Assembly: GCA_043814965.1 (NCBI GenBank)
Contig: JBDRJN010000015.1
Location: 1,503 to 65,502 of the forward strand
Direction of reading: 5' to 3'
DNA length: 64,000 nt
Source: Candidatus Omnitrophota bacterium
GTDB lineage: Bacteria > Omnitrophota > Gorgyraeia > Gorgyraeales > Gorgyraeaceae
A program made the translations under genes and the position numbers. The notes below the pieces were generated by a model. It searched no databases and had not been told where the DNA came from. It saw nothing but the letters and a program-made list of their open reading frames with translations. Below are positions 18,250-60,218 of the stretch, piece by piece. Numbering within the stretch: position 1 is the first letter of the stretch; each line of letters starts with the position of its first letter.

Positions 18250-21200
18250 ATGAAGAACCTTAAATCCATAAAAAAAACAGTATCCATAGTACTTGTAATT
18301 ACATTTTTCCTTACATCCAGCGCATATTCATACGAGGCAAGGCCAACTATACACCTAAGAAGCAATATCTCATTCGGGCCGGACAATAAAACAGAGTTCT
18401 CACAGCGTTTTGATGGAACCATTATAATGCAGCATTATGGCCTATCTAAGATCTTACCTAAAGTCCAGGCAATGCAGTATATTAATGAAGCCCAAAAGAA
18501 TAACATAGTCAACGTTCTTCTTGGCGATAAAAAGACACTTGTGCCTATTGCTCGGATTAATGCCATTGATTTAATTGATGATGGAGACTTGGTCGTCGGC
18601 CTAAATTATAACAATGAACCAGTCATAGCTATAAGCGACTCTTTGCTTACCCCTGAAAAACTCGGCGAGACAGAGATTGCTCCGACCGGCTTTACTCTTG
18701 AAGGCACTGAACTATTATTTTCAACAACTTTAAAATTCACTGTAAATGAGATAAATGATGCAATAAAGAAATATAACGATGGCGGTGTTTATGATTCATT
18801 TACAAAGACCATACAGAAGACAGAGCTGGTCAAATTAATAGAAGATATGGTGAGTAACAAGGAAGAATATACTCCGGAGGCCCTAAAGGATAAACTCGTT
18901 GAAGGCAATAATAAAACCGAGAGCCTTGCAGCTATCGCAGCAATATACTTACGCGGCGGGATGTTCTCTATGGGGACACCAAATATTCTTGAAAGTAACC
19001 TTGGGTTAGGCCTAGGTTTAGGACTGTCAAAACAAAAGAATAGCAGTGATTTTAATAAATTCGGTCAGTGGTATAAATGGGTATCGTCAGAAGTTGCTAT
19101 GGATGACTTGAATATGGACATGTTCAGGGATTATGATTATAGGTCAGTGGGACCAGTGTTAAAACCTGAAATGGTATTTCGTCTTGGTTTAATGTGGGGC
19201 CAAATGGCGTTACAGAAAGCAAAAGAGGCTGGCATAGAAAATAGAAAAGTACTTATAGCAAGGGATGCCAGGAAAATAGAACCAGAGTTAGTAGAGGCAT
19301 TGGCTGCATCACTGCGGTATGCGGGGCTTGATGTTGTTTATACTGCGGAAGATGGCCCGAATGCAGTAACATCTTATTCCTGGGCCGCTCAGGAGATCAA
19401 GCCTCTGATGAGTATATTTATTACTGCAAGCCATGTATCTATGCCAAAAGACCAGATCGTAAGGGGTTTTAAAGTAGCTATGTTGAATGAAGAAGGCGGC
19501 AATCTGGTCAGTTTAACTTCCAAAGAAATAAAGAACCAATCAAAAGATGCTGTTAAAGACCTGATAGAAAATCCTGAAAAGATAAAAGATTTAGAATCTC
19601 AAAAGAAAGGAAGTTTTATTGCTGCTAATGTCGATGAAAATTGCATAAGGATGTGTTCACTTGTGGGCGAAGTTGCTAGTAGTGGAGGCTCTCTCTATGA
19701 TCTGGCAAGAGAGTTAGAATCCTCTGATTCACCGGAAGATGTTATTACAAAGTGGGAAAATAAAGTCGGGCACACAGAGCCTTTAAAAGGCATGAAAGTA
19801 GTTGTGGAGGGTTCCCATACGCCGAGCGGAAACCTAGCAGCTAATACATTCAAGCAATTAGGAGCAGATGTGGTCTTGATAAACGGAGATATCCTAGAGG
19901 TAGAGGGCGAACATAATGCTGACCCATCCAAAGATAAAAATTTAACGCAGTTGAAGCAAACAATAGATACTGAAGGCGCTGATTTTGGTATAGCATTTGA
20001 TCTTGACGGCGATAGAGGTGCTATTGTTGTGCCTAAAAGATCCGAAGATGATTCTGGTATCAGTTTCGAGACTCTTGCTCCTGACAGGCTTATAGTTTCT
20101 TTGTTGCCATATTATATGGAAAAATTAGGATATGATCCTACAGTTACAGGTAAAAAAGTAGGTGTTATACGCGATGTATTAGGGACGTTCGGCGTAGATG
20201 ACCAGGCAGAGGCTTTGGGGATAGAGGCATTCCAGACAGACGCTGGCTATGTATTCTTGAAAGCAAAGAGAGCTGATCTATTACAGCAGGGCTATGGGAT
20301 ACCTATATATGGCGAACTTTCAGGCCACACCTGGCAGGATGTCACAGGGGAATTTGAGAATCCTGTGGCTGTTGCAGCTGTATTTAGCGTAATGGTAAAG
20401 GATAAAAAATATAAAGAAGATAATACCACCACATCCTTAAATCCTTTCTACGAAGCATTTACCGAAAGCACTATACCTTATAAACAGGCATCCAGGTCTC
20501 AGCCGCTCTTTGCCGGGGAATTTTTGTCAGAACTTTCGTCAATGCCGGCTAATAATACAGGATGGGCTTATAATCCTGATAATCCTACAAAACCTCCGCA
20601 ATTAATAATTGCCTTGGGAAAAGACGAAGGGATCAAGAGATTGCAGAAAGAGTTTACCGTAGGTAAATCTTATAATACACCGGCAGGGGAGTTGATTGTA
20701 AAGGAATTTAATACATATCAGGATGCAGTAGATGAAGGAGGGCTTTATAGATTTGCTGATATTGTATTTGAGCAGGATGGCAATGTCGCAGGCAGGTTTA
20801 TATTCAGGGCTTCTTCAAATGACCCGACATTTGTGTGTTCTTTCGAGACCCCGGTATGGGTAAATGAAAATACTGATTCAAAGACAGTAAACGACAGGTA
20901 TATTTCAATCGGAGGGATTGTTTTTGATTGGCTGGAGCAGAATAAGATCGCCAGGGTGACAGGAGATGTTGATTATGCCAATAAAGAATCCACGGAAAAG
21001 GTTGTTCTGGTTTATAGAGGTGCTAAAAATACAGAAACAGCAGCTGATGTAGCTGTAATTAGCAGTTCTGAAGATGCGAATATTCCAGAAGAAGAAACAA
21101 CTTTAATGCAGAATTTTGGCTTAGATGCTATACTAAGGCCAGAAACTGCAAGAGACCTTCTTACACCTTTATTAAGTAAAGATAACCCTACGATAAAGAT

Positions 21201-23220
21201 GTATACAACAAAGGATGATTTTAAAGAAGTATCTTTTGACGATACGATCCTGTCTTTTATAGAAGATAAAAATCTTATATTAGGAAGAAAAGGCGATGAA
21301 TTAGTAGTGGCTTATTCTACGCCTATTTCTAGATCAAGACGTGATTTCCTGAAAGGCTTAGGTGCTATGGCTATCGGGACAAGTCTATTGGGTTTTCTAG
21401 CATCATGCGAAGAACCTACTAAGCCAAAGGATCCTGTGATCCCGGATGAAGGAGAGCTTAATACTCATCCATATGAATTTATGAGAAAAGGGCTTTCTCT
21501 AAGTGAAGTATCTAAAAAAGCAGCGGATTGGATCCTGGGGCAAAAGTCCCCAGTTAGCTGGGTAATAAGCTATGGCTCTACGCCAGAACATGCGAGCGAT
21601 AATATAGCCTGGAGCTTTGACCAGGGAACGACAATGACTGTATTTTCACAAATGGATGGAGAATATTTAGCACTTGCAAAAATAATCGCTGATAAAATGG
21701 TTGCAGAGCAGGATACAAACGATGATACATGGTATGATGGATATATGGGTAACTATGTCCCAGAAAAGGGCAATAAGTTAGTAGGAAATATAGTTAGCGT
21801 AGGAAGAGGCCTTGTAGAAAAATATCTTGTAGAAACAAGTGAAACTAAATATATTGAAAGCGCTAAAAAAGCAGGAGATTCAATACTTTTAAGATACTGG
21901 AATACGCTAGGTAGCGATAAAGGGTTTTTTAGAGGCGGCCTTGAAAATGGCGTAGATGTTTCCTGGGCATCCACAGAGCATAATTCAAGAGCAGCTATAT
22001 TCTATTATAGATTGTGGGTAGCTACAGGAGATGATAAATACAAGGACGTGGCTTTAAAAATAGCTAATTGGCTAAAAAGTGAGATGTGGGCAGGAGATCA
22101 TTTCCATGTAGGATATGATCATGGTACTAATATAAATCTGTACTACAATCAAGATGCAGATGCACAAGTTACGCCAATTTTACTTTTCAACATGCTTAAG
22201 GAAGATGGAATAGTGGGGGATGAATTCGATCCAAATAAGTTCAATACACTTAAATATCTCGATGACAATTATAGGCATAAGATCACTTTTATTGGTACAG
22301 ATGGTTTGAAAAGGACAGTAGACCTATATGGAAAGGTTAAAGGCATCGTTCACGTATGGCCTGAAGTAAGTGATAATATTGCAGCTGTATGCCAGGCTTG
22401 GGGCAATACTATAAGAAAAGACGAGACATTAACTGACATAGCAAAGCTACAGTATGTTGATGGCGGCATACCTTATTTATTAGGTAAAGACGGAGTCCCG
22501 TATGGATGGACTGACCAGGGCCCTGGAAGTTTTCCTCATCCTTCAATAGCTTCAAGTATATCTTTTATAGCCGCAAAAGACCTTGGCCCATATTGGTTCC
22601 CTGTTATAAAAAGAAGTACAGATACTGATATTGGTACTAAGTTTGAGGATAGTGCGATCGAGGATATCGCAGTAGCAGGAACAGGTGTTGCGGCTACTTT
22701 AGTAACAGGACTTACAGGATCAGAAGTTAGTATTGAAGACATCTTAAACATAGAAGATAAAGTAGAGATCAAATTGGACGGAGAAACAGTAGAAGATATT
22801 GAATATTTAAAGCTTATGAATAAAGCAAGCTGGTTGGGTAGCACTGGTACCAAGAGCAGTGACGGAGTATATCATATCAACCTGCTTAAAGACAAGATAG
22901 ACCCTGTTGTCTTTAGCGGGGAGTATGTAGAAGATGAGCCGTATGAGTTTTTGCAACGTTCTAGAGAAGAACTCAACAAAAATAAAACCCCTGTTATTTT
23001 AGTGACAAGCGATGTACAGGAAAAAAGGCTTAAAAATGATATAAGGTTTAGAGCAATGCTTGACCATGAGGAATTATTTATAGTAAGGGCAGAGCCTGAA
23101 AGGGTGGAGTCTCTTATCGCTCTAGGCACAGACGGCATATCTTTTGATGTTAGCCAGATCAGTGTTACTAAACTGATAGAGAATAAAGACATAATCATGT
23201 CTTATCTGCACCAGAAGTAA
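18250..23220 (+). CDS. Giant exported protein (1656 aa): Sec signal peptide; degenerate alpha-D-phosphohexomutase (PGM/PMM)-like domain; internal Tat-motif/lipobox segment; C-terminal (alpha/alpha)6-like domain
   Basis: N-term MKNLKSIKKTVSIVLVITFFLTSSAYS; PGM/PMM-like motifs IARDARK (cf GRDGR), ITASHVSMP (cf TASHNP), FDLDGDRG (cf FDGDGDR), GELSGH (cf GEESGH), RASSNDP (cf RASNTTP); internal SRSRRDFLKGLGAMAIGTSLLGFLASC. Confidence 0.6.
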   Translation: MKNLKSIKKTVSIVLVITFFLTSSAYSYEARPTIHLRSNISFGPDNKTEFSQRFDGTIIMQHYGLSKILPKVQAMQYINEAQKNNIVNVLLGDKKTLVPIARINAIDLIDDGDLVVGLNYNNEPVIAISDSLLTPEKLGETEIAPTGFTLEGTELLFSTTLKFTVNEINDAIKKYNDGGVYDSFTKTIQKTELVKLIEDMVSNKEEYTPEALKDKLVEGNNKTESLAAIAAIYLRGGMFSMGTPNILESNLGLGLGLGLSKQKNSSDFNKFGQWYKWVSSEVAMDDLNMDMFRDYDYRSVGPVLKPEMVFRLGLMWGQMALQKAKEAGIENRKVLIARDARKIEPELVEALAASLRYAGLDVVYTAEDGPNAVTSYSWAAQEIKPLMSIFITASHVSMPKDQIVRGFKVAMLNEEGGNLVSLTSKEIKNQSKDAVKDLIENPEKIKDLESQKKGSFIAANVDENCIRMCSLVGEVASSGGSLYDLARELESSDSPEDVITKWENKVGHTEPLKGMKVVVEGSHTPSGNLAANTFKQLGADVVLINGDILEVEGEHNADPSKDKNLTQLKQTIDTEGADFGIAFDLDGDRGAIVVPKRSEDDSGISFETLAPDRLIVSLLPYYMEKLGYDPTVTGKKVGVIRDVLGTFGVDDQAEALGIEAFQTDAGYVFLKAKRADLLQQGYGIPIYGELSGHTWQDVTGEFENPVAVAAVFSVMVKDKKYKEDNTTTSLNPFYEAFTESTIPYKQASRSQPLFAGEFLSELSSMPANNTGWAYNPDNPTKPPQLIIALGKDEGIKRLQKEFTVGKSYNTPAGELIVKEFNTYQDAVDEGGLYRFADIVFEQDGNVAGRFIFRASSNDPTFVCSFETPVWVNENTDSKTVNDRYISIGGIVFDWLEQNKIARVTGDVDYANKESTEKVVLVYRGAKNTETAADVAVISSSEDANIPEEETTLMQNFGLDAILRPETARDLLTPLLSKDNPTIKMYTTKDDFKEVSFDDTILSFIEDKNLILGRKGDELVVAYSTPISRSRRDFLKGLGAMAIGTSLLGFLASCEEPTKPKDPVIPDEGELNTHPYEFMRKGLSLSEVSKKAADWILGQKSPVSWVISYGSTPEHASDNIAWSFDQGTTMTVFSQMDGEYLALAKIIADKMVAEQDTNDDTWYDGYMGNYVPEKGNKLVGNIVSVGRGLVEKYLVETSETKYIESAKKAGDSILLRYWNTLGSDKGFFRGGLENGVDVSWASTEHNSRAAIFYYRLWVATGDDKYKDVALKIANWLKSEMWAGDHFHVGYDHGTNINLYYNQDADAQVTPILLFNMLKEDGIVGDEFDPNKFNTLKYLDDNYRHKITFIGTDGLKRTVDLYGKVKGIVHVWPEVSDNIAAVCQAWGNTIRKDETLTDIAKLQYVDGGIPYLLGKDGVPYGWTDQGPGSFPHPSIASSISFIAAKDLGPYWFPVIKRSTDTDIGTKFEDSAIEDIAVAGTGVAATLVTGLTGSEVSIEDILNIEDKVEIKLDGETVEDIEYLKLMNKASWLGSTGTKSSDGVYHINLLKDKIDPVVFSGEYVEDEPYEFLQRSREELNKNKTPVILVTSDVQEKRLKNDIRFRAMLDHEELFIVRAEPERVESLIALGTDGISFDVSQISVTKLIENKDIIMSYLHQK

Positions 23221-23414: not shown

Positions 23415-23903
23415 GTGATAGTTATGGGAGATATAAGACGATACAAAGAAGATGGATATATTTATTTTATAACAACTAATACATACTCTAATAAAGGAAT
23501 ATTTTTAAAAGAAAAGCCGAGTTTATTCCTAAAATCTATTATTTCTTATTATAGGTTTGTATTTAGATTCAAACTGTATACATATTGTATTATGCCAGAT
23601 CACATACATATGCTTATACAGCCTCTTACTAAACAATACGACATATCAACTATAATGAAAGAGATCAAGGGTACGTTTGCAAGAGAATATAATATTATGA
23701 TACGTAAGAGAGGAGATATTTGGCAGAGGAAGTTCTACGATTCTATAATAAGAGATGAAGAGAGCTTGCTTATTAGAATTAATTATACTTTTGAAAATCC
23801 AGTAAGGAAAGGAATAGTCAATAAAGCCACGGAATATAAATTTTCGAGTGCTAGGTCATATATTTTAGGAGAGGAAGATTATGTTACTGATAGATATAAT
23901 TAA
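23415..23903 (+). mobile_element. REP-associated tyrosine transposase (RAYT; IS200/IS605-like Y1 HUH transposase)
   Basis: 162 aa; HUH motif PDHIHMLI; catalytic-Tyr region INYTFENPVRKGIV (RAYT signature Y-x-x-x-N-P-V-R-x-G-[LI]-V); flanked by REP-derived repeats; codon usage more AT-rich than neighbours. Confidence 0.75.
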
Positions 23904-37140: not shown

Positions 37141-40100
37141 ATGAGAAACTTTGTAAAGATATCAGGTATTTCAATAATATTTGCTATGGTCATTGCCTTT
37201 GCTATCCCTCAGGTTTTAGGGGAAGGGCCTAGTAAGTGGCCAGTAGAGTTATCCAAAAAGGAGTTCTATAAAGAAGATTATATTACTTTACTCGGCATGT
37301 TTAGTAAGACGATAGAAATAACAAAGACTTATTATGACCCAGGGCCTATCAAGATGGGCGATGTCAGCGGTGATGGTGTAAGTGATATAAGCTTTATAGC
37401 TACTAATAGTACCACTGGATATAACAGTGTATATCTACTCAATAAAGATGGTGTTATTTATGATGGATGGCCTAAAGAACTTGATTGTAATTCTGGAGTT
37501 GCACCAGCGCTTGTAGATCTAGACGAAGATGGTAATATGGAGATTATAGTCAATACAACCTCTGATGGCATAAAGATCTATACGTGGGAATTTGATGGAA
37601 GCCTGGTCAAGAACTTTCCAATAAAAATACCTGGGACTGAAGGTTCTAGCAGTATTGATGAAAAAGGCAGATACTATTTAACCACCACTAGTTATAGTAT
37701 ACCTGCGATAGGAGATGTAGATGGGGATGGCATAGAAGATCTAGTTGTTACAGGGACTACTATAAAGGATTATGGAAATCAGCTAAAAAATGAGACTATA
37801 AATAAGATCTGGGCAGTCAGCCTGGGAAGCGGTCAGATGACATTAAGTGGCTGGCCTGTAACCCTGGAAAAAGGCGAAAACTTACCCTATTGGAATTCTC
37901 CAGCTATAGCTGATATAGATAATGATGGCACAATGGAAGTAATTATAGGTATAAATAGGCCTTGTGGTGATAAGTTAGATAAAGATACATACCGCGTATA
38001 TGTATTTAACTGCGATGGAAAGCCTTTTAATGAGAATTGGCCGAAGGATCTAAAGCTTGATAACATTACTTTAGAAAAGACATTAGGCATTACCTCGGAC
38101 TTTTATAGAAGTAAGGATAGTAAGTTTGGTTTTATGACTTCCCCGGTTGTTGCAGATGTAAACGGGGACAATAAGGAAGAGATAGTTATAGCTGGTTCTT
38201 ATCTAAATTATTTTATAGCGCCTAATGAATTAGGATTGGGCTCAGAATATGACACACCTTTTATAGAAGCTAATTCAATATTGTATGTCATGGACAAAGA
38301 TGCTTTTATACTGGAGGGATGGCCCAGGATAATAGGGACCAGCCTGATACATCAGGCATTCAAATACATTGACCCGTCTATAAGTATAGGTGATGTAGAT
38401 TACGATAGCATTCCTGATATATCTTTACCAGGGTACGATGGCAATATCCATATATTGAATTATATGGCAGATGAGATTCTCAAGATAGAAAGCCTTGATT
38501 TTTATAAAAAATATTTTTATACATTAATAGGCGATATAAATAATGACTTTAAAGTCGATATAGTAGCCCCTGCATTAGAAAATATAATATGCGCTTTTGA
38601 TACAGATGGAAAATACCTTAATGATTTTACGCCTAAAAGGATGGAGGGAGATACTGATTTTGTAAACCCATTGATCGTAGCATGCCCTGCCATAGACAAT
38701 ATAGAGATGAGGGATTATCTCAGTATAATCTCTCCTTCATCTAAAAATAAAAACGTATCTAACTATCCTGCAGGCATAATAAATAAATGGGATGCTGGCG
38801 ATACTGGTTTGATCGGAGATATCAAAGAGACATCTATTATAGATTGGCCCCAGTTTGCATATGACGCCAAGAACACCAACTGGCACTTGTCTAATGAAAA
38901 GACCAACCGCTCCGGGGATGATAAAGATGATAAATTGCAGAAAAAAAATACTATCAGCGGTTATGTGGCGTCTTCTATCCAAGATGACTATGGCAGAAGA
39001 CTGTTTTATTTTGAAGGAGTAAAAGTCCGGGCAATAGTCTGGGATCCTATATTAAAAGTATATGGCCCTATACATTCTGAGGTTTTTACTGGGCCTGATG
39101 GTACATATGAGTTTCCAGAAGAGGACATGGTTCCTGGAACTATTTATTCGATCGTAGCTAATCCTTTGGAAAAGGCGCCTTATCCAAAATTGGAGTATAA
39201 AGAAAAATACGTAGGCGATGTAGTAGAATTTGCGTTTGGCCCGATATATAAACACTCTGATTGTTTTGGCCAGGCCTTTGATAGAGAAACAGGCAAGGCA
39301 CTAGAAGGCGTGACTGTAAAACTAAGGGCAGACTCTGATTTTAAGATCTATTCCGGGGTTTCTAATAATAATGGGTGGTTCTTGATCCAGGGCTTACCTT
39401 ATCTTTCTTTTTATGATGTTTTTGCTTCAAAGAAAGGATATAAAGAAGAACAGAGGGGGCCGATAGATATCAAACAGGATCCTTTTTACAGGATAACAAA
39501 TCCTGACCTTTCTCTTGTCCCTATTCCAAAAGGCAGTATCTCAGGTAAAGTAATGGATGGAGCTATCGGAGTAGAGGGTATGGTTGTTGAAGCTATTGAT
39601 AAAGACGGGGATATATATTCAGATACTACTGATGCATCAGGCGAGTATGAGATAAAAGATCTATTGGAGAATTATAACTATACCGTTACCGTGGGTGAAA
39701 AAGAAGGTTATAAGGGCTCTATCCCTACAAAACATGAAGTAACTGTAGTAGGTAATATCTTAAATATTGATTTTACTCTTCAAAAGACAAGTTATAGCAT
39801 CTCCGGAGTGATATACAATGAAGATGGTTCAAAAAGATTACATCCTAGCACAGTTAAATTAGAAGGTACTTCTGCTAGCGTACTGACCATGGAAGATCCT
39901 GACAAACCAGGAGAGTTTGGATACTATGAAGTCGCAGGCCTGGAAGAAGACGGATATTATATCCTTACTGTTAGTAGTGATGGTTATATACCTGTAAGCC
40001 GAGGCTTTATTGATCTAAGAGAAGATACAAAGTTTGATTTTCATCTTAAAAAGCCCCCTGAAAGATATAATATTACTGTAAATGTGCGGGATGAAAATAA

Positions 40101-40806
40101 TAAACTAGTGCCTCGAGCGCATGTAGGTATAGTGGGGTTTGGTTATGATATAGATGTTGGATATGATGGCATATTGGAGTGGGAAGGATTATTTGGAGGG
40201 GAAAAGACTTTTTGGGCTTCAAAGGATGGGAAATACGGCGAGACCAAGGCTGTGATCGAGGAGAATGGAGTAGTTGTAGATATAGTATTAAAGGAAAATA
40301 GATACTCTCTTTCAGGCATTGTAACTGAAAGAGGCGCTAATATTCCTTTAAAAGATGTAATAATAAAAATAAAACTACCAAATGGCATTGAAAAAGCTGC
40401 AAGGTCAAATTCCAATGGTTATTACCTTATTAAGGACATGCCTAATGGTAAATATATGGCATCGTGTACCAAAGAAAGAGAAGGAGGTATATGGTATCAT
40501 GGGTATAGATTGGAAGTTGTTATTTCAGGGAAGAATAAGACACTGGATCTAACGCTTGCTAAGGGAGAATATCTATATACTGTTACTGGTAGAGTAGTTG
40601 ATGAAGATGGCGACCCTGTAAAAGGCGCTACTGTAAGGCCAGATGGGCTTGGACAGAGGCTTACTACAGATAGATCAGGCGAATATTCATTATTATTGCC
40701 TGCTAAGACATATTTATTTATAGCTGAGCTGAATGGTAAAAGAGGAGAGAGGTCTATCACTGTAAAAGAAGAAAATACCAGAGTGGAAGACATTATTATC
40801 AGATAG
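37141..40806 (+). CDS. Giant surface protein (1221 aa): signal peptide, FG-GAP/VCBS-type beta-propeller repeats, C-terminal carboxypeptidase-regulatory-like (CarboxypepD_reg) repeats
   Basis: N-term MRNFVKISGISIIFAMVIAFAIPQVLG; repeats GDVSGDGVSDISF, VDLDEDGNMEII, GDVDGDGIEDLVV, ADIDNDGTMEVII, ADVNGDNKEEIVIAG; C-term units DGTYEFPE, SGEYEIKDL..YNYTVTV, SGEYSLLLPAKTYLFIA. Confidence 0.7.
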   Translation: MRNFVKISGISIIFAMVIAFAIPQVLGEGPSKWPVELSKKEFYKEDYITLLGMFSKTIEITKTYYDPGPIKMGDVSGDGVSDISFIATNSTTGYNSVYLLNKDGVIYDGWPKELDCNSGVAPALVDLDEDGNMEIIVNTTSDGIKIYTWEFDGSLVKNFPIKIPGTEGSSSIDEKGRYYLTTTSYSIPAIGDVDGDGIEDLVVTGTTIKDYGNQLKNETINKIWAVSLGSGQMTLSGWPVTLEKGENLPYWNSPAIADIDNDGTMEVIIGINRPCGDKLDKDTYRVYVFNCDGKPFNENWPKDLKLDNITLEKTLGITSDFYRSKDSKFGFMTSPVVADVNGDNKEEIVIAGSYLNYFIAPNELGLGSEYDTPFIEANSILYVMDKDAFILEGWPRIIGTSLIHQAFKYIDPSISIGDVDYDSIPDISLPGYDGNIHILNYMADEILKIESLDFYKKYFYTLIGDINNDFKVDIVAPALENIICAFDTDGKYLNDFTPKRMEGDTDFVNPLIVACPAIDNIEMRDYLSIISPSSKNKNVSNYPAGIINKWDAGDTGLIGDIKETSIIDWPQFAYDAKNTNWHLSNEKTNRSGDDKDDKLQKKNTISGYVASSIQDDYGRRLFYFEGVKVRAIVWDPILKVYGPIHSEVFTGPDGTYEFPEEDMVPGTIYSIVANPLEKAPYPKLEYKEKYVGDVVEFAFGPIYKHSDCFGQAFDRETGKALEGVTVKLRADSDFKIYSGVSNNNGWFLIQGLPYLSFYDVFASKKGYKEEQRGPIDIKQDPFYRITNPDLSLVPIPKGSISGKVMDGAIGVEGMVVEAIDKDGDIYSDTTDASGEYEIKDLLENYNYTVTVGEKEGYKGSIPTKHEVTVVGNILNIDFTLQKTSYSISGVIYNEDGSKRLHPSTVKLEGTSASVLTMEDPDKPGEFGYYEVAGLEEDGYYILTVSSDGYIPVSRGFIDLREDTKFDFHLKKPPERYNITVNVRDENNKLVPRAHVGIVGFGYDIDVGYDGILEWEGLFGGEKTFWASKDGKYGETKAVIEENGVVVDIVLKENRYSLSGIVTERGANIPLKDVIIKIKLPNGIEKAARSNSNGYYLIKDMPNGKYMASCTKEREGGIWYHGYRLEVVISGKNKTLDLTLAKGEYLYTVTGRVVDEDGDPVKGATVRPDGLGQRLTTDRSGEYSLLLPAKTYLFIAELNGKRGERSITVKEENTRVEDIIIR

Positions 40807-52983: not shown

Positions 52984-53009
52984 TTTTAAAAATAAGGTAG
53001 GTATTGTAT

Positions 53010-54722
53010 ATGGCTGATAAAGTCAACAAGAAGATATCGCGTCTAGGTGATAAATTAGTAGAAAAAGGCCTTATCACAGATGACCAGCTAAAGCTAGCAC
53101 TTACTGAACAGAAAAAGACAGGGGATTTTCTGGGAAGCATATTGGTCGGCCTGGGGACTATCAGGGAAGAGGACCTCTATCTATCGCTCTCAGAGCAGTT
53201 AGATATCCCGTATATAAAGATAAAAGAATCCCGCATAGCAACTGACGCCCTAAGCAAGGTCTCTGCGAAGCTAGCATCCCAATATAAGATAATGCCAATA
53301 AAATTTGAGAAAAATGTCCTTACAGTAGCTGTCAGGGACCCTCTCAATATAAAGATGCTGGATGACCTGAAACTTATTTTAGGGTGTAATATTACTGCGG
53401 TCCTGGCATGCGAGACTGATATCCTCGAGGCTATCAAACGATACTACGGGATAGGAGCTGATACTATACAGGAGATGATGGATACTAAGCCAGCTGCTGA
53501 AGAGCCCGAGATAGTCATAGGAAAGACCGAGGATATACAAGATGTCTCAGGAGACGCATCTATAATAAGATTTGTAAATCAGATACTGATGCAGGCTATA
53601 AAAGACAAGGCCACTGATATACATATAGAACCCTATGAAAATGAGCTAAAGGTAAGATATAGGGTCGATGGCGTGTTATATGATATACCTATACCGCAGG
53701 ATATAAAGTATTTTGCTTCAAGTATCGCTTCCAGGATAAAAGTAATGTCAAACCTGGACATATCTGAAAAAAGGCTTCCTCAAGACGGCAGGGTAAAGAT
53801 AAAGATGGGAAGAGATGAGATGGACTTGAGGATCTCGACTTTACCAACACAATTTGGAGAGAGTGTCAATATAAGGCTGCTTACAGGGACGCAGTTTTAT
53901 AGCCTGGAAAAATTGGGCCTTTTTCCGGATGATATGAAGATAATAGAGCGGCTTATAAAGAAGCCTCACGGCATTATATTTACCACAGGGCCTACTGGAA
54001 GCGGCAAGACCACGACATTGTACTCGTGTATATCCAAGATAAATACAAATGACAAAAAGATCATAACCATAGAAGATCCTATAGAATACCAGCTTAAAGG
54101 AGTGACCCAGATACAGGTCAATCCAAAGACAGGCCTTACATTTGCCCAAGGCCTCAGGTCAATGCTGAGGCATGACCCTGATATTATGATGGTAGGTGAA
54201 GTAAGAGACTATGAGACAGCAGAGATCACTATAAGGGCAGCTTTGACAGGGCATCTTGTGTTCTCAACTATTCATACCAATGATGCGGCGGGAGGAGTGG
54301 CAAGGCTTCTCGATATAGGAGTGGAGCCGTATCTTGTCGCTAGTTCCGTAGATTGTTTTCTGGCGCAGCGCCTTGTAAGGGTGATATGCTCAAAATGTAA
54401 GACCAAGGTAAAGATAGATGAGTCTATTTTAAGGGATTTTGGAGCGGAGGAAAAAATAGATATGGTAGATGGTTTTATATATGAAGGAAAAGGCTGTGAA
54501 GAATGCAAGTTCAGCGGATATAAAGGAAGGACTGGCATATATGAGTTTTTAGCTATGGGCGAGGATATACGCAGCCTGGTCATTAAAAGAGCCCCTGCAA
54601 GCCAGATCAAGCAAAAAGCGCTGGAGCTCGGCATGCACACCCTTCGCATGGACGGATGGGAAAAAATAAAAAAAGGCATTACAACTATAAATGAAGTAAT
54701 AAGGGTTACAGGTCAGGATTAA
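53010..54722 (+). CDS. gspE: Type II secretion / type IV pilus assembly ATPase (GspE/PilB family) with N-terminal T2SSE_N domain
   Basis: Walker A GPTGSGKTTTLY, Asp/His boxes, tetracysteine CSKC...CEEC; N-domain LGDKLVEKGLITDDQL. Confidence 0.88.
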   Translation: MADKVNKKISRLGDKLVEKGLITDDQLKLALTEQKKTGDFLGSILVGLGTIREEDLYLSLSEQLDIPYIKIKESRIATDALSKVSAKLASQYKIMPIKFEKNVLTVAVRDPLNIKMLDDLKLILGCNITAVLACETDILEAIKRYYGIGADTIQEMMDTKPAAEEPEIVIGKTEDIQDVSGDASIIRFVNQILMQAIKDKATDIHIEPYENELKVRYRVDGVLYDIPIPQDIKYFASSIASRIKVMSNLDISEKRLPQDGRVKIKMGRDEMDLRISTLPTQFGESVNIRLLTGTQFYSLEKLGLFPDDMKIIERLIKKPHGIIFTTGPTGSGKTTTLYSCISKINTNDKKIITIEDPIEYQLKGVTQIQVNPKTGLTFAQGLRSMLRHDPDIMMVGEVRDYETAEITIRAALTGHLVFSTIHTNDAAGGVARLLDIGVEPYLVASSVDCFLAQRLVRVICSKCKTKVKIDESILRDFGAEEKIDMVDGFIYEGKGCEECKFSGYKGRTGIYEFLAMGEDIRSLVIKRAPASQIKQKALELGMHTLRMDGWEKIKKGITTINEVIRVTGQD

Positions 54723-54723
54723 T

Positions 54724-55926
54724 TTGAATAAAGAAATCACTAAGACAATAGTCATACCTCGCCATTTAGCATTCATAAGGTTTCTGGATATCCCTTCAGT
54801 GGATGATTCTGAGATAAAAGATGTATTAAGGTTCCAGGCCATAAAAGAACTGCCTTATCCCAAAGAGGACATAGTCATCGGTTATAAAAAACTAGGGTCC
54901 TATAAACAGGGAAGTATTTCTATCATGCTTGTGGTGGCTACCAAGGAGATACTGGAAGATGCTATAGAAAATGAAGCTCGGCTGGGAGCTGGCCAGGATT
55001 GCATAGTAAGGCTGTATACAGAGTTATTGTATGAGTTTTTATTAAAACAGAATGTCATAAAAGAGGACAAAGTAAATCTTGTTATCAATATAGGAGAGAA
55101 GTCTTCTGAGATAATTGTGATGGATAAAAAGCGCCTTATCGTCTCGAGGGGGTTTTCAGACAATAAGAGGCTGCTCGAGGAGATAAAGCATTCATTATTA
55201 GCATACAAAAGGGATAGATTGAACCCGCCTATAGAAAATATAATCATAAGGCGTTTTTTATCCAGAGACACGGAAGATATCAAACTCTACATCGAAGAAG
55301 AGTTCCAGGGTGTACCATTAGAGAGTTATGAATTTAAAAAAGACCTCGAGGCATTAGATTTTTCATTGGATATCAATCTTGCTCCAGAAGAGATAAGACA
55401 GAACCTGGAAAAGACCAAAAAAAAGAAAGAATCTATCATAATATATGGGCTTATCTTTGCTATAATAGCGCTGGTCTTTTCTTTGCTGAATTACAAGCTT
55501 TACGAAAAGAGAAAATTCATAGATATCCTTTCTGATAGATTGACGAAGCTTCAGACAAAGACGCATAATCTCAGCAAGCTCTCCAAAAAAACAGATTTTT
55601 TAAGCAAGCAGGAATTGGAAGGCCTTGTGATGGTGGATATCCTGGGTTACTCTGATAGGGCAGTGCCTTCCAGCATATTTTTATCAGGATTGGAATATGC
55701 GGGGAACAACGAAGTCTCTTACAGGGGGTTTGCGAAGGATACATCTTCTGTGCTTGACCTTGTCAGGATACTGGAGGATTCAGAATATTTCAACAAGGCT
55801 GAAGTCAAGTATGCCACCAAAAAAAGATATAGGGGCAAGGAGATAGTTGATTTCGACATACAGTGCCATATAGACATGGATAATGTCTCAAAGAAATACA
55901 ATATAGATATAATAAAGGAAAGATGA
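54724..55926 (+). CDS. GspL-like / PilM-PilN fusion (cytoplasmic actin-like domain, one TM, periplasmic coiled-coil)
   Basis: 400 aa; N-terminal PilM-like region; TM IIIYGLIFAIIALVFSLLNY around residue 240; TTG start. Confidence 0.6.
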   Translation: MNKEITKTIVIPRHLAFIRFLDIPSVDDSEIKDVLRFQAIKELPYPKEDIVIGYKKLGSYKQGSISIMLVVATKEILEDAIENEARLGAGQDCIVRLYTELLYEFLLKQNVIKEDKVNLVINIGEKSSEIIVMDKKRLIVSRGFSDNKRLLEEIKHSLLAYKRDRLNPPIENIIIRRFLSRDTEDIKLYIEEEFQGVPLESYEFKKDLEALDFSLDINLAPEEIRQNLEKTKKKKESIIIYGLIFAIIALVFSLLNYKLYEKRKFIDILSDRLTKLQTKTHNLSKLSKKTDFLSKQELEGLVMVDILGYSDRAVPSSIFLSGLEYAGNNEVSYRGFAKDTSSVLDLVRILEDSEYFNKAEVKYATKKRYRGKEIVDFDIQCHIDMDNVSKKYNIDIIKER

Positions 55927-56435
55927 TAAAGCTAAATATCTCAAAAAGAGAAAAAAACATACTGATCGTCACGATCGCGGTCGTATCCATGGTCCTGATA
56001 TACAATCTTGTGTTGGATGGTGTCTTTAAGAGTTGGGTAGGGTATAATAAAAAGATATCAGATGACATAAAAGACCTTGAAAAGAATATAGAGTTATTGA
56101 AAAACAGGAACCTTGTCATCAGGCACTACAATTCATATGTCTCCAATATCAATACCATGCCCAAGATACTCTCTATAATAGAACAAAATGCATCATCGTT
56201 GGGCATTACCACATCCAATATAAGGCCCAGGCCTGTCATAGATCATGGTATATGCAAGGAATATATAGTAGAGCTTCATATTGAGGGAGGGCTTGGCAGT
56301 ATAACCAAGCTTATGTCCCAGCTTATAGAGCATCCTGTCATCATAAGCATAAAGAAGTTTGAATTGAGAAGGACCGAGCAAGAGAGCTCTATTTTTAAAG
56401 GTATATTTGTCATGTCCAAAGCAGTCCTCCAGTAG
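55923..56435 (+). CDS. GspM/PilO-like bitopic inner-membrane protein
   Basis: 170 aa; N-terminal TM ILIVTIAVVSMVLIYNLVL then periplasmic domain; overlaps upstream stop (translational coupling). Confidence 0.5.
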   Translation: MIKLNISKREKNILIVTIAVVSMVLIYNLVLDGVFKSWVGYNKKISDDIKDLEKNIELLKNRNLVIRHYNSYVSNINTMPKILSIIEQNASSLGITTSNIRPRPVIDHGICKEYIVELHIEGGLGSITKLMSQLIEHPVIISIKKFELRRTEQESSIFKGIFVMSKAVLQ

Positions 56436-56557: not shown

Positions 56558-56809
56558 ATGGAGAGCAATAGAATTATGGAAAATAATATTTATTTAATAA
56601 AGGACCTGGCTAGATTAAGCGGGCAGACTATTCATACTATAAAATATTATCTTAATATAGGCCTTATAAAGGAAATAGGCAGAAGCCCTGAGACCAATTT
56701 CAGGTATTTTAACAAAAAGAACCTTGAAGAACTTCTCAGGATAAGGACACTGCGGCGGGAGCATAAGTCTCTCGCTGAGATAAGAGAGATACTAGAAGGG
56801 AGAATGTAG
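56558..56809 (+). CDS. Small MerR-family HTH protein (83 aa, HTH only)
   Basis: YLIKDLARLSGQTIHTIKYYLNIGLI matches MerR N-terminal HTH; stop abuts exeA-like start. Confidence 0.55.
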   Translation: MESNRIMENNIYLIKDLARLSGQTIHTIKYYLNIGLIKEIGRSPETNFRYFNKKNLEELLRIRTLRREHKSLAEIREILEGRM

Positions 56810-57637
56810 TTGTCATACTACGAGATACTCAGCCTCAAGAAAGAACCTTTTTCTACAAGCCCTGACCCTTATTTTATGTATCCATCTTTGTCCCACCAGC
56901 AAGTGATCAAAAGACTAGAGACAGTTATCAGGCTCAAAAGGGGTTTAAGCCTGGTCCTGGGAGATGTAGGAGTAGGTAAGACTACGCTAGGGAGATCGCT
57001 TTTGCAGATACTTAGCAAAGAAGATTCTTTTATGCCTCACATGATACTTGACCCTGTATATGACTCTGAGTTCCAATTTGTCGTGTATCTTGCTAAGTTA
57101 TTTGGCATCAAGTCTTCTTTTAGGTCCACGCTTGATTACAAAGAGGCTATAGAAAGGTTTTTGTTTAAAAAATGCGTTGATGAAAAAAGCACCGTCATCT
57201 TAGTAATAGACGAAGCGCAAAAACTATATCCCTCCACACTCGAGATACTTCGTACATTGCTGAACTTTGAGACCAATGAATACAAACTTATACAACTTGT
57301 TATCATAGGCCAGATGGAACTTTTGCCGAAACTAAAAAGAATAAAGAACTTTTCCGACAGGGTAAGCCTGAAATATATACTTAATCCATTTGATATAAAC
57401 GAGACAAAAGACATGATAAGGTTCCGCTTGAAACAGGCAGGTTATAATTCAGGAAAAAGCTTCTTTACAGAAGAAGCCATGAATATGATATACGAATACA
57501 CGCAGGGCTATCCCAGGAAGATCGCAAACCTGTGCCATAGCGCGCTAGAGGAATTAGTCATGAAAGAGTCGCGGTCAGTCGATGAAAACCTGATACAAGA
57601 ATTGATAGAAAGGGATAAGGTAGTGGCATTGGCCTAG
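56810..57637 (+). CDS. ExeA/GspA-like AAA ATPase (AAA_22), cytoplasmic form lacking TM/peptidoglycan-binding domain
   Basis: N-term SYYEILSLKKEPFSTSPDPYFMYPSLSHQQ (ExeA signature F-L-x-PF-x-PDP-FLY), Walker A GDVGVGKTT, Walker B VILVIDEAQ; TTG start. Confidence 0.75.
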   Translation: MSYYEILSLKKEPFSTSPDPYFMYPSLSHQQVIKRLETVIRLKRGLSLVLGDVGVGKTTLGRSLLQILSKEDSFMPHMILDPVYDSEFQFVVYLAKLFGIKSSFRSTLDYKEAIERFLFKKCVDEKSTVILVIDEAQKLYPSTLEILRTLLNFETNEYKLIQLVIIGQMELLPKLKRIKNFSDRVSLKYILNPFDINETKDMIRFRLKQAGYNSGKSFFTEEAMNMIYEYTQGYPRKIANLCHSALEELVMKESRSVDENLIQELIERDKVVALA

Positions 57638-57638
57638 T

Positions 57639-58136
57639 ATGAGAAACATTACACCCGAAGGAAAATTACTGAACCTTATAAAACAAGCTCAACATAAGCC
57701 CAGGCTTAAAAAGGATCTAAAGATCTTTACTAAGCTTACGATAGCCTTGAGCGGGGTCATAGTCGTTATAGTCATCCTGCTGATAGTAGATATGACTAGG
57801 TTCGAATATGAGCTTCCCAGCGTAGATATAAATTTTGATGAAAACTATGAGACCATAGATATATTAAAACCCAGCGATGTTGATTTTAAGATAGATGTAG
57901 AAAAGACCAATGTCAAGAATATATCGGATATCAAAAACAATATACAAAGCAGTATAAAACTAGTCGGTATCATCACCGGAGAGGAATCCCAGGCTATCGT
58001 AGAAGACCTCCAGACGAAGGAGACGCTTTTTCTTGGAGTGGGTGATAGCATAAAAGATTGTAAGGTCTCTAATATATTCAAGGACAGCGTAGTCTTGGAT
58101 TATAATGGAGAAAAGATAACCATAGCTATTCAATAA
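57639..58136 (+). CDS. GspC/PilP/ExeB-like bitopic periplasmic protein (secretin-interacting HR-domain-like)
   Basis: 165 aa; TM LTIALSGVIVVIVILLIV; C-terminal beta-rich LVGIITGEESQAIVED...LFLGVGDSI...VVLDYNGEKITI. Confidence 0.45.
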   Translation: MRNITPEGKLLNLIKQAQHKPRLKKDLKIFTKLTIALSGVIVVIVILLIVDMTRFEYELPSVDINFDENYETIDILKPSDVDFKIDVEKTNVKNISDIKNNIQSSIKLVGIITGEESQAIVEDLQTKETLFLGVGDSIKDCKVSNIFKDSVVLDYNGEKITIAIQ

Positions 58137-58151
58137 ATAAAGGATATTTAT

Positions 58152-60218
58152 ATGAAGATATCAAAAAGCAGCGTCTTTATAATAATAGGATTTTTGATAA
58201 TGAACTCTCTTTTTTCTTTGGACATCACATATGCCAAGGACTATTCCCCCGAACTTATATCTTTAGATATAAAAGGCATGGATATAAGAGATGTGCTGAA
58301 GCTATTATCACAGAAGAGCGGTTTGAATATCATAGCAGACAGAGAAGTCAGAGGAGACGTGCAGCTATATGTAAATGACCTGGATATCATGCAGGTATTG
58401 GATATACTGGTCTCTACCAATGGCCTTGCGTATGAGCAGCAGGGCACCCTCATAAGAGTGATGACAGACAAGAAATATGATACGCTTCACGGTAAATCAT
58501 TCGACGATACTACTGTCACTGAAATAATAAAACTAAACCATATCAATGCCCAGGATGTATCCAACACCATAAACGAGATAAAGACCAGTATCGGCAAGAT
58601 CATACCTGACGAGAGGTCCAACACCGTAGTCTTGATAGACAATCCGTCTACGGTCGACAGGATGAAGCAGATCATAATGGAGATGGATGTAGCCTTGACG
58701 ACAGAGGTGTTTGATCTTAATTTTGCAAATGCCAGTGACGTAAAAGGCAAAATAGAGAACATCGTCTCCAAGGATATAGGAGAAGTGAGTATAGACGAGA
58801 GGACCAATAAACTAGTAGTAAAAGATACACCTAAGAAGATAGAAGAGATAAAGAATATCATAAAGGTATTCGACGATAAGACACTGGAGGTCTCCATAGA
58901 GACGCATATCATACAGGTGAGCCTTGCAGATAAATACAGCCATGGTATCAATTGGTATGATATTGCTAGGCTTGGAGACTTTAAATTTACAATAGATACT
59001 AACCTTTCTACGGGGCTGACAAATGTGACGCCTTCTGATTTTAGCGTGGCTAGCAGCGGTAATTTCACAGCGATAATGGGCTTACTGGATACATTTGGGA
59101 AGACCAATGTCCTTTCCAAGCCCAGGATCACTGTTGCTAATAAGCAAGAGGCTAAGATCCTGGTGGGATCCAAAGAAGCCTATGTTACTAGCGAAGTGAC
59201 TACGACCGAAGGAGGGACTTATCACACAACAGATAATGTTCAGTTTGTTGATGTTGGAGTGAGTTTATCAGTAACGCCTGAGATAAACAGGGCAGGATAT
59301 ATTACGCTAAAGGTCAGGCCAGAGGTCTCGAGCTCTGATTCTACCAAGACCGTAGAGCTCAAAAATCCTGATGGCTCTACGCGTACGATTGTCCCCTATG
59401 TGACTACTGCTGAGACCGAGACAACAGTTGTTATAAAAGACGGCACTACTCTTATATTAGGCGGATTGATGAAAGATACTGTCATAGACAATAAACAAAA
59501 AGTACCTATCCTGGGAGATATACCTTTATTGGGAGGGTTATTCAGGTCATCCGGAAAAAGTAAAGAGAAGACAGAGCTGGTCATATTTATCACGCCTCAT
59601 ATCATCGGAGGAGACGAGACTACTGGAGAAGTAAAGAATGGACTTAAGGATTTTAATAGGCAAGAGGAAAAAAATAAAGTGGATAGGGAATTACCTATCA
59701 TAGGCGGGGTGAGCGAAAGAAGTGATGCGCGGGAAAGCAGGACACCGATATGGCGTACTGCCAAAAGAAAACCTGACGCGAAACCAGTGACTAAAAAAGA
59801 TGCTTCTCGGGCGCCTAAAGCAGCTGCTGAGAGAAAAGATAAAGCAAGTGAATGGGCTCCTCTTCTTGGCGCGGAAAAACCAAAAGAAGTTCCAATGCCT
59901 ACAATGGCTAAAGAGGAGAAAAAAGGATCTCCGCCTCAAAGATCTACCAACGAAGATTATGATCTACTGGTAGATCAGGAGATAAAGAGAGTTGTCAAAG
60001 ACCAGGGCAATATAGGGGCCAAGGGTATTGTAGAACTCCAGTTTACACTGGACAGGGAAGGTTTTTTGATAAAAGGCCCTATCGTACTTAATAAACCTGA
60101 GCTCACGCTTGTAAGAAACAGTGTAAACGCTGTTAAAGCTGCTTCTCCATTCCCTCCATTCTATGAAGGCATGAGCGAGGATGAAAGAGAGTTTTATGTA
60201 AAGGTAGTGTACGAATAG
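58152..60218 (+). CDS. Secretin (GspD/PilQ family) with N0/STN-like and N1 domains and an unusual C-terminal Pro/Lys/Ala-rich linker + TonB_C-like domain
   Basis: 688 aa; signal peptide; N0 ISLDIKGMDIRDVLKLLSQKSGLNII; secretin core ...VPILGDIPLLGGLFRS...TELVIFITPHII; tail KRKPDAKPVTKKDASRAPKAAAERKDK then AKGIVELQFTLDREGFLIKGPIVLNKPELTLVRNSVNAVKAASPFPPF. Confidence 0.8.
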   Translation: MKISKSSVFIIIGFLIMNSLFSLDITYAKDYSPELISLDIKGMDIRDVLKLLSQKSGLNIIADREVRGDVQLYVNDLDIMQVLDILVSTNGLAYEQQGTLIRVMTDKKYDTLHGKSFDDTTVTEIIKLNHINAQDVSNTINEIKTSIGKIIPDERSNTVVLIDNPSTVDRMKQIIMEMDVALTTEVFDLNFANASDVKGKIENIVSKDIGEVSIDERTNKLVVKDTPKKIEEIKNIIKVFDDKTLEVSIETHIIQVSLADKYSHGINWYDIARLGDFKFTIDTNLSTGLTNVTPSDFSVASSGNFTAIMGLLDTFGKTNVLSKPRITVANKQEAKILVGSKEAYVTSEVTTTEGGTYHTTDNVQFVDVGVSLSVTPEINRAGYITLKVRPEVSSSDSTKTVELKNPDGSTRTIVPYVTTAETETTVVIKDGTTLILGGLMKDTVIDNKQKVPILGDIPLLGGLFRSSGKSKEKTELVIFITPHIIGGDETTGEVKNGLKDFNRQEEKNKVDRELPIIGGVSERSDARESRTPIWRTAKRKPDAKPVTKKDASRAPKAAAERKDKASEWAPLLGAEKPKEVPMPTMAKEEKKGSPPQRSTNEDYDLLVDQEIKRVVKDQGNIGAKGIVELQFTLDREGFLIKGPIVLNKPELTLVRNSVNAVKAASPFPPFYEGMSEDEREFYVKVVYE

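Follow-up and report, generated by a model that had tools for sequence, protein, structure and literature searches.

A GspD-like secretin of Omnitrophota fused in frame to a TolA/TonB-fold C-terminal domain, a putative periplasmic tether

Type II and type III secretion, type IV and Tad pili and the export of filamentous phages all use secretins as their gates in the outer membrane. How these gates are positioned and anchored in the envelope has mostly been attributed to N-terminal AMIN domains, to GspAB or to S-domain-binding pilotins. A gene at 58152-60218 of a 64,000-nucleotide stretch of contig JBDRJN010000015.1 from a Candidatus Omnitrophota bacterium (the whole stretch is called the window here) raises the question of why a secretin should end in a domain of the kind found at the C-termini of TonB and TolA. 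The first-pass annotation of this DNA, made from the sequence without database searches, described a complete secretin core, a low-complexity Pro/Lys/Ala-rich linker and a segment of ~90 amino acids (aa) resembling TonB/TolA C-terminal domains, and proposed that the tail couples the secretin across the periplasm to the peptidoglycan or inner membrane, perhaps in place of the peptidoglycan-binding domain missing from an ExeA-like neighbor. The structural part of that description, with secretin, linker and TonB_C/TolA-III-like domain joined in one reading frame, was borne out, as was the missing domain of the neighbor, but a periplasm-spanning coupling did not hold up as a conserved function. 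Judged from the sequences assembled here, the fusion is a real, phylum-wide and unusual secretin accessory. As a joint explanation, we put at about one half the probability that the tail is a passive periplasmic tether or adaptor of a GspD-like secretin that captures a partner peptide.

The gene and its parts are listed below, with residues numbered in the protein.

58152..60218, + strand: secretin::TolA/TonB-CTD (C-terminal domain) fusion, whole gene, 688 aa, stop codon included
58152..58235, + strand: probable Sec signal peptide (aa ~1-28, with an approximate cleavage site), hydrophobic N-terminus MKISKSSVFIIIGFLIMNSLFSLDITYA
58266..58460, + strand: N0/STN domain, aa 39-103, Pfam matches sub-threshold
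58518..58886, + strand: two Secretin_N (N1/N3-type) ring domains, aa ~123-245, Pfam Secretin_N
59085..59606, + strand: secretin beta-barrel and gate domain, aa 312-485, Pfam Secretin
59607..59702, + strand: semi-conserved post-barrel helix, aa 486-517, weak likeness to the first GspD S-domain helix
59703..59942, + strand: disordered Lys/Glu/Ala/Pro-rich variable linker, aa 518-597, from AlphaFold2 and the conservation map
59841..59873, + strand: short linear motif KASEWAPLLGA within the linker, aa 564-574, family consensus P-K-x-K-W-T/A-P-I/L-L/F-G-A
59943..60215, + strand: TolA-III/TonB_C-fold domain, aa 598-688, topology alpha-beta-beta-alpha-beta

The whole of 58152-60218 (+) is one ATG-to-stop open reading frame (ORF) of 688 aa with zero internal stops. 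A missed frameshift, a chimera or a mis-called stop might nonetheless have joined a secretin to a separate TonB-like gene, a doubt raised at first pass and one for which two observations speak: a free-standing tail gene occupies the same position in some genomes, and a word-indexed search with the tail alone returned two short fragments only, the family being seen through full-length and profile searches. Against an artefact, the frame is uninterrupted, barrel end and tail are both present in 137 independent proteins drawn from NCBI, JGI, ENA and Logan assemblies, and tblastn places core and tail in one frame in every one of the 18 related loci where both occur (17 of the 19 found at one genome per species, plus L001, a further metagenome-assembled genome and the closest relative), with a conserved motif lying inside the linker. 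A frameshift or chimera is excluded by the single ORF, the 137 fusions and the frame shared in 18/18 related loci, and we give an artefact next to no weight.

The survey of homologues for the same extension, suggested at first pass, thus uncovered a family. The full-length search recovered more than 120 homologues of 608-737 aa at 47-62% identity, most at 95-100% query coverage, and the named ones come nearly all from Candidatus Omnitrophota metagenome-assembled genomes. Practically all of them share an end of ~75 aa, ...GEVELQFTLDKEGFLxRGPVVLNKPDLxLVRAAVNCVKxAxPFPPFPK...VVVRYE, and about a third carry a precomputed PF03544 match. A scan of one genome per species yielded 19 loci, all from Omnitrophota, a few of them auto-labelled Planctomycetia. 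When 1.8 billion representatives were searched exhaustively with a profile of the tails, 1582 of them matched at E <= 1e-3. These matches were sorted with a barrel hidden Markov model; they include at least 15 divergent full-length secretin-tail fusions, of which the named ones are again from Omnitrophota. One further GspD-like secretin of the same family, on a Logan contig (P0123, 851 aa), has three tandem tail domains after the barrel.

Several 640-665-aa secretins of the family (P0056, P0077, P0093 and P0107) are named 'energy transducer TonB' by the NCBI pipeline. None of the papers reached by literature searches describes a fusion of secretin and TonB_C. In two preprints on Omnitrophota giant genes, T2SS-like (type II secretion system-like) loci are mentioned and the secretin tail is not; one of the two, from 2026, reports, without explanation, 'TonB C-terminal domain' genes beside giant-gene/secretion loci, which may be the same fusion or the free form described below. 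Precomputed Pfam annotations do show the two domains together, so the combination is not hidden; it appears to have gone unrecognised and to be partly mis-named.

The secretin core itself is unambiguous at the superfamily level. The Pfam Secretin family (PF00263) matches aa 312-485 at E 9.1e-50 (169 bits against a cutoff of 27.5) up to the barrel end ...TELVIFITPHII, the very end quoted at first pass, after which 203 residues follow. Ahead of the barrel, Secretin_N matches at E 2.1e-24 (85.9 bits against a cutoff of 28.2) in two stretches, the better at aa 123-181, and the N-terminus carries a probable signal peptide, recognised by eye from its hydrophobic stretch; the protein is accordingly placed in the secretin superfamily, with a barrel above cutoff preceded by ring domains and a signal peptide. 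The Pfam matches to type_II_gspD_N0 (aa 39-89, 23 bits) and STN (aa 58-103, 21 bits) each lie below threshold, and this block is among the best-conserved parts of the family in a conservation map of 45 non-redundant full-length sequences, from which all conservation values below are also taken (0.94 at aa 41-60; 0.75-0.79 at aa 61-100). A sequence search of the PDB matched 22 secretin chains, the top matches having E values of 4e-41 to 2e-35 and the nearest being GspD/XcpQ of T2SSs (5wln, 5wq8 and 5wq7). The NCBIfam equivalog cutoffs were missed throughout, most narrowly for GspD (TIGR02517, 249 against 351 bits, the nearest of three), with PilQ (TIGR02515) at 239 against 284 and MshL (TIGR02519) at 203 against 250 bits. 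Taken with the operon described below, we regard the fusion secretin as a genuine GspD-like secretin of a T2SS, specific to the Omnitrophota lineage and in a separate clade from the equivalog GspD.

What, then, is the tail? Against Pfam TonB_C (PF03544), the window tail scores 17.9 bits within the whole protein (aa 622-687) and 22.4 bits alone (E 1.7e-4), a little under the curated cutoff of 24.6, and NCBIfam returns weak tolA_full and tonB_Cterm matches on the window protein. By itself the window copy is thus borderline and suggestive of the resemblance seen at first pass, whereas the family puts it far above chance: 31 of 33 non-redundant orthologous tails (alignment A1) match TonB_C when scanned singly (E <0.01; best E 2.5e-8), seven of the 33 match TonB_2 (PF13103) and none matches any other Pfam family. 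Relatives score above the TonB_C cutoff, with 33.4 bits for the free form, 64.4 for P0123 and 80.2 for a Tad-type fusion (P0162). Searched against the PDB, the tail profile found only the CTD of Helicobacter pylori TonB (6sly, E 6.6e-5; 5lw8), HasB and Vibrio anguillarum TonB2.

Structure prediction gave the same answer. With A1, AlphaFold2 produced a helix-strand-strand-helix-strand model of the tail at a predicted local distance difference test score (pLDDT) of 87.7 and a predicted template-modelling score of 0.76, and with a broader alignment of 47 tails that includes divergent ones (A2) a model of aa 481-688 placed the domain (aa 598-688) at pLDDT 92-98. The top 19 Foldseek matches in the PDB are all TonB-CTD, HasB, TolA-III or FusB. 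By sequence the domain is nearest TonB_C, and by shape, having a long first helix, it is nearest TolA-III. Its per-column conservation of 0.6-0.78 is near barrel level. Membership of the TolA/TonB C-terminal superfamily is solid despite the sub-cutoff score of the window copy, because 31/33 orthologous tails match and the AlphaFold model is confident, and the first-pass concern that the tail might have no TonB/TolA-like fold is put to rest.

A TonB-like domain invites the idea of an energised or competitive link to TonB/ExbBD or TolQRA, in which the tail would engage TonB- or TolB-box proteins or be pulled, so coupling gating or secretion to the proton-motive force or recruiting TonB-dependent receptors beside the secretin. 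The nearest non-secretin relatives of the tail are in fact ordinary TonB/TolA-type proteins, ~200-240 aa long with a His-containing N-terminal transmembrane (TM) helix typical of such transducers, and there is a precedent tying TonB to a pilus machine, PocAB-TonB3 being needed for type IV pilus production and localisation in Pseudomonas aeruginosa (PMC5285504). The fusion, however, has no TonB/TolA-type (SHLS-type) His-containing TM helix with which to contact ExbBD or TolQR, since it starts with a probable signal peptide and goes on into secretin domains. Of the 137 fusions, four, divergent ones among them, keep the YP motif of TonB, and it is missing from the other 133, the window copy included. 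Neither the 64-kb window nor the syntenic locus L001 contains genes for ExbB/ExbD, TolQ/TolR, TolB-Pal or a TonB-dependent receptor; none was found beside P0159, the one stand-alone TonB-like relative whose neighborhood was examined, where the absence of ExbBD is uninformative. The tail is thus without every TonB/TolA energy-coupling feature (TM helix and nearby exbBD/tolQR, with YP in 4/137 only), and we consider an energised link very unlikely.

Domains of this kind occur in two further arrangements. In two lineages, on four contigs (L019:4236-4688 and L022:358-807; also L023 and L024), the tail is a free protein of 149-150 aa; one version, P0129, was recovered on three contigs from separate samples. 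It begins with a Sec-type signal peptide (...AHA/QKK or ...VHA/ERK), continues with KSKWTPLF(G/S)R, a version of the linker motif, and ends in the domain. At these loci the genes between FabF and acyl-CoA dehydrogenase, an interval that in the window holds three large genes and the whole secretion operon, are gone and the 149-150-aa ORF stands in their place. We conclude that motif and domain form an autonomous module exported to the periplasm, with the Trp motif as the mature N-terminus of the free form, because the free form consists of signal peptide, Trp motif and domain; since it is present where the operon is missing from the locus, the module can act unattached to a secretin. Either a free gene was captured by the secretin or the fusion was split, and the sequences would be compatible with either order of events.

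Directly after the free tail gene at L022 lies a 126-aa signal-peptide protein (L022:871-1251) that has no Pfam match and whose C-terminal half, by eye, resembles the HR-type domain of the window's GspC/PilP-like protein.

The second arrangement is a Tad-type secretin of 836-1109 aa (L026:1851-5126, P0162; also P0274-P0279 and P0285), in which T2SS-T3SS_pil_N and Secretin are followed by two TonB_C domains (80 bits) and a long C-terminal region that has a weak TPR match. The class comprises P0162 and six further clusters, likewise from Omnitrophota. P0162 matches the tail profile at 63 bits (E 2e-12), and the gene lies between RcpC and a gene in which a CpaE-like (ParA-type) domain is fused to a T2SSE ATPase domain. 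Among the same profile hits, Tad secretins from elsewhere have BON or LysM instead of TonB_C, at comparable positions. Two unrelated Omnitrophota secretin classes have thus independently acquired the same kind of C-terminal module.

Between barrel and domain lies a segment of very uneven character. Its first part (aa 486-517, family consensus EGDKTTEEAKKYMDEWDKKAEEAKIEKPEEPE) is helical at low confidence in AlphaFold2 (aa 493-509, pLDDT ~60), and in phmmer alignments the GspD chains (5wq8, 5wq7, 9k8v and 6i1y) continue ungapped to aa ~516 and so reach the first S-domain helix, whereas PilQ chains align only to aa 485-487, the PilQ C-terminus. This ungapped match is of low identity, with few residues shared between the window protein and GspD of V. 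cholerae or E. coli, and no second helix follows. The remainder conforms to the low-complexity linker described at first pass: column conservation is 0.16-0.32, AlphaFold2 predicts no secondary structure at pLDDT 51-60, and the quoted sequence lies in a window segment (aa 486-597) with 15% Lys, 10% Pro and a net charge of +7. Pooled over the family, helix and linker together contain 19% Lys, 13% Glu, 10% Ala and 7% Pro at a median net charge of +4, and across the 137 fusions they span 8-158 aa (median 93), with six fusions under 40 aa and only eight residues between barrel and domain in P0172. Within the linker the Trp motif stands out, as evidenced by conservation of W568 at 73% in the non-redundant set and by its presence in 96/137 fusions; its consensus derives from 118 distinct contexts, and its median distance to the domain is 29 aa. 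A second, lineage-specific Trp segment, RTPIWRT (aa 531-537), sits in an insertion absent from most homologues.

The position of the helix allows a reading of the extension as a modified S domain, with the helix packed on the neighboring barrel and the folded domain replacing the pilotin-binding helix, so as to recruit an outer-membrane lipoprotein or chaperone or to serve as a built-in pilotin for targeting and oligomerisation. The extension does sit exactly at the GspD S-domain position, in alignments that stay ungapped through the first helix; conservation of the helix segment is partial, some members have linkers so short that the domain would be set against the barrel wall, and no pilotin-like gene was noticed in the operon. 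We nevertheless judge such a piloting role improbable: the helix similarity is weak, the disordered spacer of 90-150 aa in most members would be needless for a barrel-proximal function, and the free periplasmic form and the two- and three-domain variants are unfit for a stoichiometric S-domain role. TonB_C also occurs on Tad-type secretins, which to our knowledge do not use S-domain/pilotin piloting.

To return to the passive tether or adaptor, each secretin subunit runs from the barrel through the S-domain-like helix and the disordered linker to the folded 90-aa domain, and the assembled ring would carry one tethered domain per subunit around its periplasmic rim (12-15 subunits in the secretins solved in the PDB). 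The tail is placed in the periplasm by inference because the barrel end and S domain of GspD face that compartment and the free form carries a Sec signal peptide. The domain would transduce no energy; it would probably capture a short extended partner peptide by beta-strand addition, as TolA-III does with the TolB N-terminus and TonB with the TonB box, or, less likely, contact peptidoglycan, and with either mode of binding the secretin would be held in place or organised within the envelope. We favor a protein or peptide as ligand because in the best-matching structures an extended peptide is added as a strand to this fold, the precedents being TolA-III bound to TolB (6s3w) or to phage g3p and TonB bound to its box. 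Candidate ligands include the KW(T/A)P(I/L)(L/F)G motif of the linker, offered in trans by a neighboring subunit, a periplasmic segment of the GspC/L/M platform, and a peptidoglycan-associated protein.

Several results weigh against this reading of the tail. Besides the sub-cutoff TonB_C score of the window copy noted above, neither the Trp motif nor the helix after the barrel docks in cis on the domain in the AlphaFold2 model of aa 481-688 (both at pLDDT ~55-64, the motif at ~59). The periplasmic topology rests on homologous structures and on the signal peptide of the free form, the spread of linker lengths is hard to square with one fixed geometric target, and the occurrence of the free form where the operon is missing from the locus means that the function of the module may not concern the secretin. 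The same linkers bear on the proposal that the tail spans the periplasm: a strictly spanning role is unlikely as the conserved function, because linkers can be as short as 8-40 aa and a GspC/PilP-type connector, the canonical link from the inner-membrane platform to the secretin, is encoded next door, directly upstream.

That connector belongs to an operon with the following genes.

53004-54722, + strand: GspE/MshE-type ATPase, Pfam T2SSE and MshEN
54724-55926, + strand: GspL-like PilM/PilN fusion, Pfam PilN
55923-56435, + strand: GspM/PilO-like protein, Pfam PilO
56558-56809: MerR-family regulator, 83 aa, between the GspM-like and GspA-like genes
56810..57637, + strand: short ExeA/GspA/MshM-like AAA+ ATPase, 275 aa, Pfam AAA_22, NCBIfam TIGR03015-like
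57639..58136, + strand: TM-anchored GspC/GspB/PilP-like protein, 165 aa, with a C-terminal HR-type domain, Pfam T2SSC

The order of these genes is conserved, with the ATPase followed by the GspL-like, GspM/PilO-like, MerR, GspA-like and GspC-like genes, the secretin::tail fusion, and then acyl-CoA dehydrogenase and EtfBA. The 165-aa protein matches T2SSC at aa 103-163 (25.7 bits), has weak T2SSB and NCBIfam GspC matches, and is syntenic in all related loci. The MerR gene keeps its operon position wherever a related locus reaches that far.

Eight relatives have, between the ATPase and the GspL-like gene, a block of ~3 kb (for example L004:670-3889, against 53004-55926 in the window) that encodes GspF, GspG (T2SSG, 104 bits), two or three pseudopilins and a GspK-like gene. 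In the window, tblastn found no copy of this GspF/G/pseudopilin block anywhere in the 64 kb, and the block is also gone from that site in L001 and L015; the platform and pseudopilin genes of the window organism must lie elsewhere or have been lost. The names MshEN, PilN and PilO suggested an MSHA or type IVa pilus, a reading that we set aside in view of the GspF, GspG and GspJ/K-like genes and of GspD as the best alignment. We take the machine to be a T2SS and not an MSHA pilus because the operon of the relatives holds GspF, GspG and GspJ/K-like pseudopilins.

The GspA-like gene of this operon bears on a further alternative, in which the tail binds the cell wall directly and replaces the wall-binding domain of GspA/ExeA, fixing the secretin or helping it through the sacculus. 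As the first-pass annotation had observed, the neighbor lacks that domain: the 275-aa ATPase matches AAA_22 (E 4e-17) and a TIGR03015-like NCBIfam model (183 bits), it has no TM segment, the Pfam scan gave no PG_binding match, and the ATPase is short (~274 aa) in every related locus, complete copies of the gene matching over ~270-275 aa. The Pfam scan also found no AMIN, LysM or other wall-binding domain on the window secretin, and linkers as short as eight aa put the domain near the outer membrane and the wall, not the inner membrane. The TonB C-terminus itself reportedly has affinity for peptidoglycan (work by Kaserer and colleagues from 2008); our literature search for a link between TonB and peptidoglycan or LysM found no paper. 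Short GspA/MshM-type ATPases without a wall-binding domain are, on the other hand, also normal in MSHA-type loci, so that its absence here indicates no lineage-specific loss in need of compensation. Other secretins do carry wall- or envelope-binding modules, namely AMIN, LysM or BON; the AMIN domains of PilQ bind peptidoglycan and position the pilus machine (PMC5285504), and the envelope fixing proposed above would correspond to that role and, by inference, perhaps to that of LysM/BON on Tad secretins. Omnitrophota, moreover, retain a complete peptidoglycan synthesis pathway (10.64898/2026.06.07.730766). Against direct binding, the established ligand of the fold is a peptide strand (TonB box, TolB N-terminus or phage g3p), and neither sequence nor fold comparison revealed any likeness of the tail to a dedicated wall-binding domain, the confident fold matches being all TolA/TonB. 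We therefore regard a direct peptidoglycan anchor as possible but unlikely.

Directly upstream of the T2SS genes are three large ORFs.

37141-40806: large ORF, 1221 aa
41750-49144: large ORF, 2464 aa
49343-52789: large ORF, 1148 aa

They contain FG-GAP repeats and CarboxypepD_reg, SdrD_B and SpaA-like domains, the 2464-aa one with an S8 subtilase domain as well, and could plausibly be secreted adhesins or proteases and substrates of the T2SS. In L001 the operon likewise has a related S8/FG-GAP gene ahead of it. The Omnitrophota giant-gene preprints propose an export role for secretion loci beside giant genes. A more far-reaching possibility is that tails and linker 'box' bind one another in trans around the ring (or bind the free form) and so form a regulated periplasmic collar or gate-lock, peculiar to Omnitrophota, on both T2SS and Tad-type secretins, or that the tails are outer-membrane receptors for a TolA/TonB-type motor driven by the proton-motive force. 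We hold this to be a long shot; if true, a collar or an energised secretin would be a new principle of how secretins are organised or powered, and it could tie into the export of the FG-GAP/S8 proteins encoded directly upstream.

The remainder of the window holds housekeeping genes. Among them is an IS200-like Y1 transposase ORF of 162 aa (23415-23903), and at 18250-23220 lies a 1656-aa ORF in which only aa ~291-593 have a match (phosphoglucomutase/phosphomannomutase domains I and II), with more than 1000 residues matchless.

Omnitrophota are ultra-small and probably predatory or episymbiotic, and their solution differs from the usual explanations of secretin anchoring: a peptide-binding domain of the TolA/TonB type is placed on the outer membrane, in two secretin classes, and is also made as a free protein. 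The known uses of the TonB_C/TolA-III fold would thereby widen to an 'upside-down' arrangement. The fusion offers a concrete, testable module for the organisation of the Omnitrophota envelope, with candidate substrates encoded beside the T2SS genes, and it exposes a recurring database error in which secretins are named as energy transducers.

How, finally, does this secretin compare with known systems? The GspA-GspB (ExeA-ExeB) arrangement is matched in that the secretin gene directly follows genes for a GspA-like AAA+ ATPase and for a small TM protein that has an HR-like domain, but the GspA-like protein here is without the TM segment and the peptidoglycan-binding domain. The BON and LysM modules of Tad secretins are N-terminal and of unrelated folds, with a known peptidoglycan or lipid ligand. 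Like those modules and the AMIN domains of PilQ (PMC5285504), the tail would be an added periplasmic part that attaches or positions the secretin in the envelope; AMIN, however, is N-terminal, of unrelated fold and with a known peptidoglycan or lipid ligand, whereas the tail is C-terminal and of a peptide-binding fold. GspD of V. cholerae (5wq8), E. coli K-12 (5wq7) and P. aeruginosa (XcpQ, 5wln) has the same N0, Secretin_N and barrel; the fusion has a helix directly after the barrel, at the position of the GspD S domain, and the operon of the relatives shares its GspE, F, G, J/K-, L-, M- and C-like genes. The difference is that a disordered linker and a TolA/TonB-fold domain here stand in for the rest of the S domain. 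We know of no characterised GspD with such a tail, and the literature searches turned up none. The Tad-type P0162 is of the same phylum and carries the same TonB_C subfamily at the same post-barrel position as the window tail, but differs in its secretin class (CpaC-RcpA type), its two TonB_C domains, its long C-terminal region and its RcpC/CpaE-CpaF locus. Compared with TolA-III and the TonB CTD themselves, the polarity is inverted: the domain hangs from an outer-membrane protein instead of an inner-membrane TM helix, one copy for each subunit of the ring, and it lacks both the SHLS-type TM helix and, in this clade, the YP motif.

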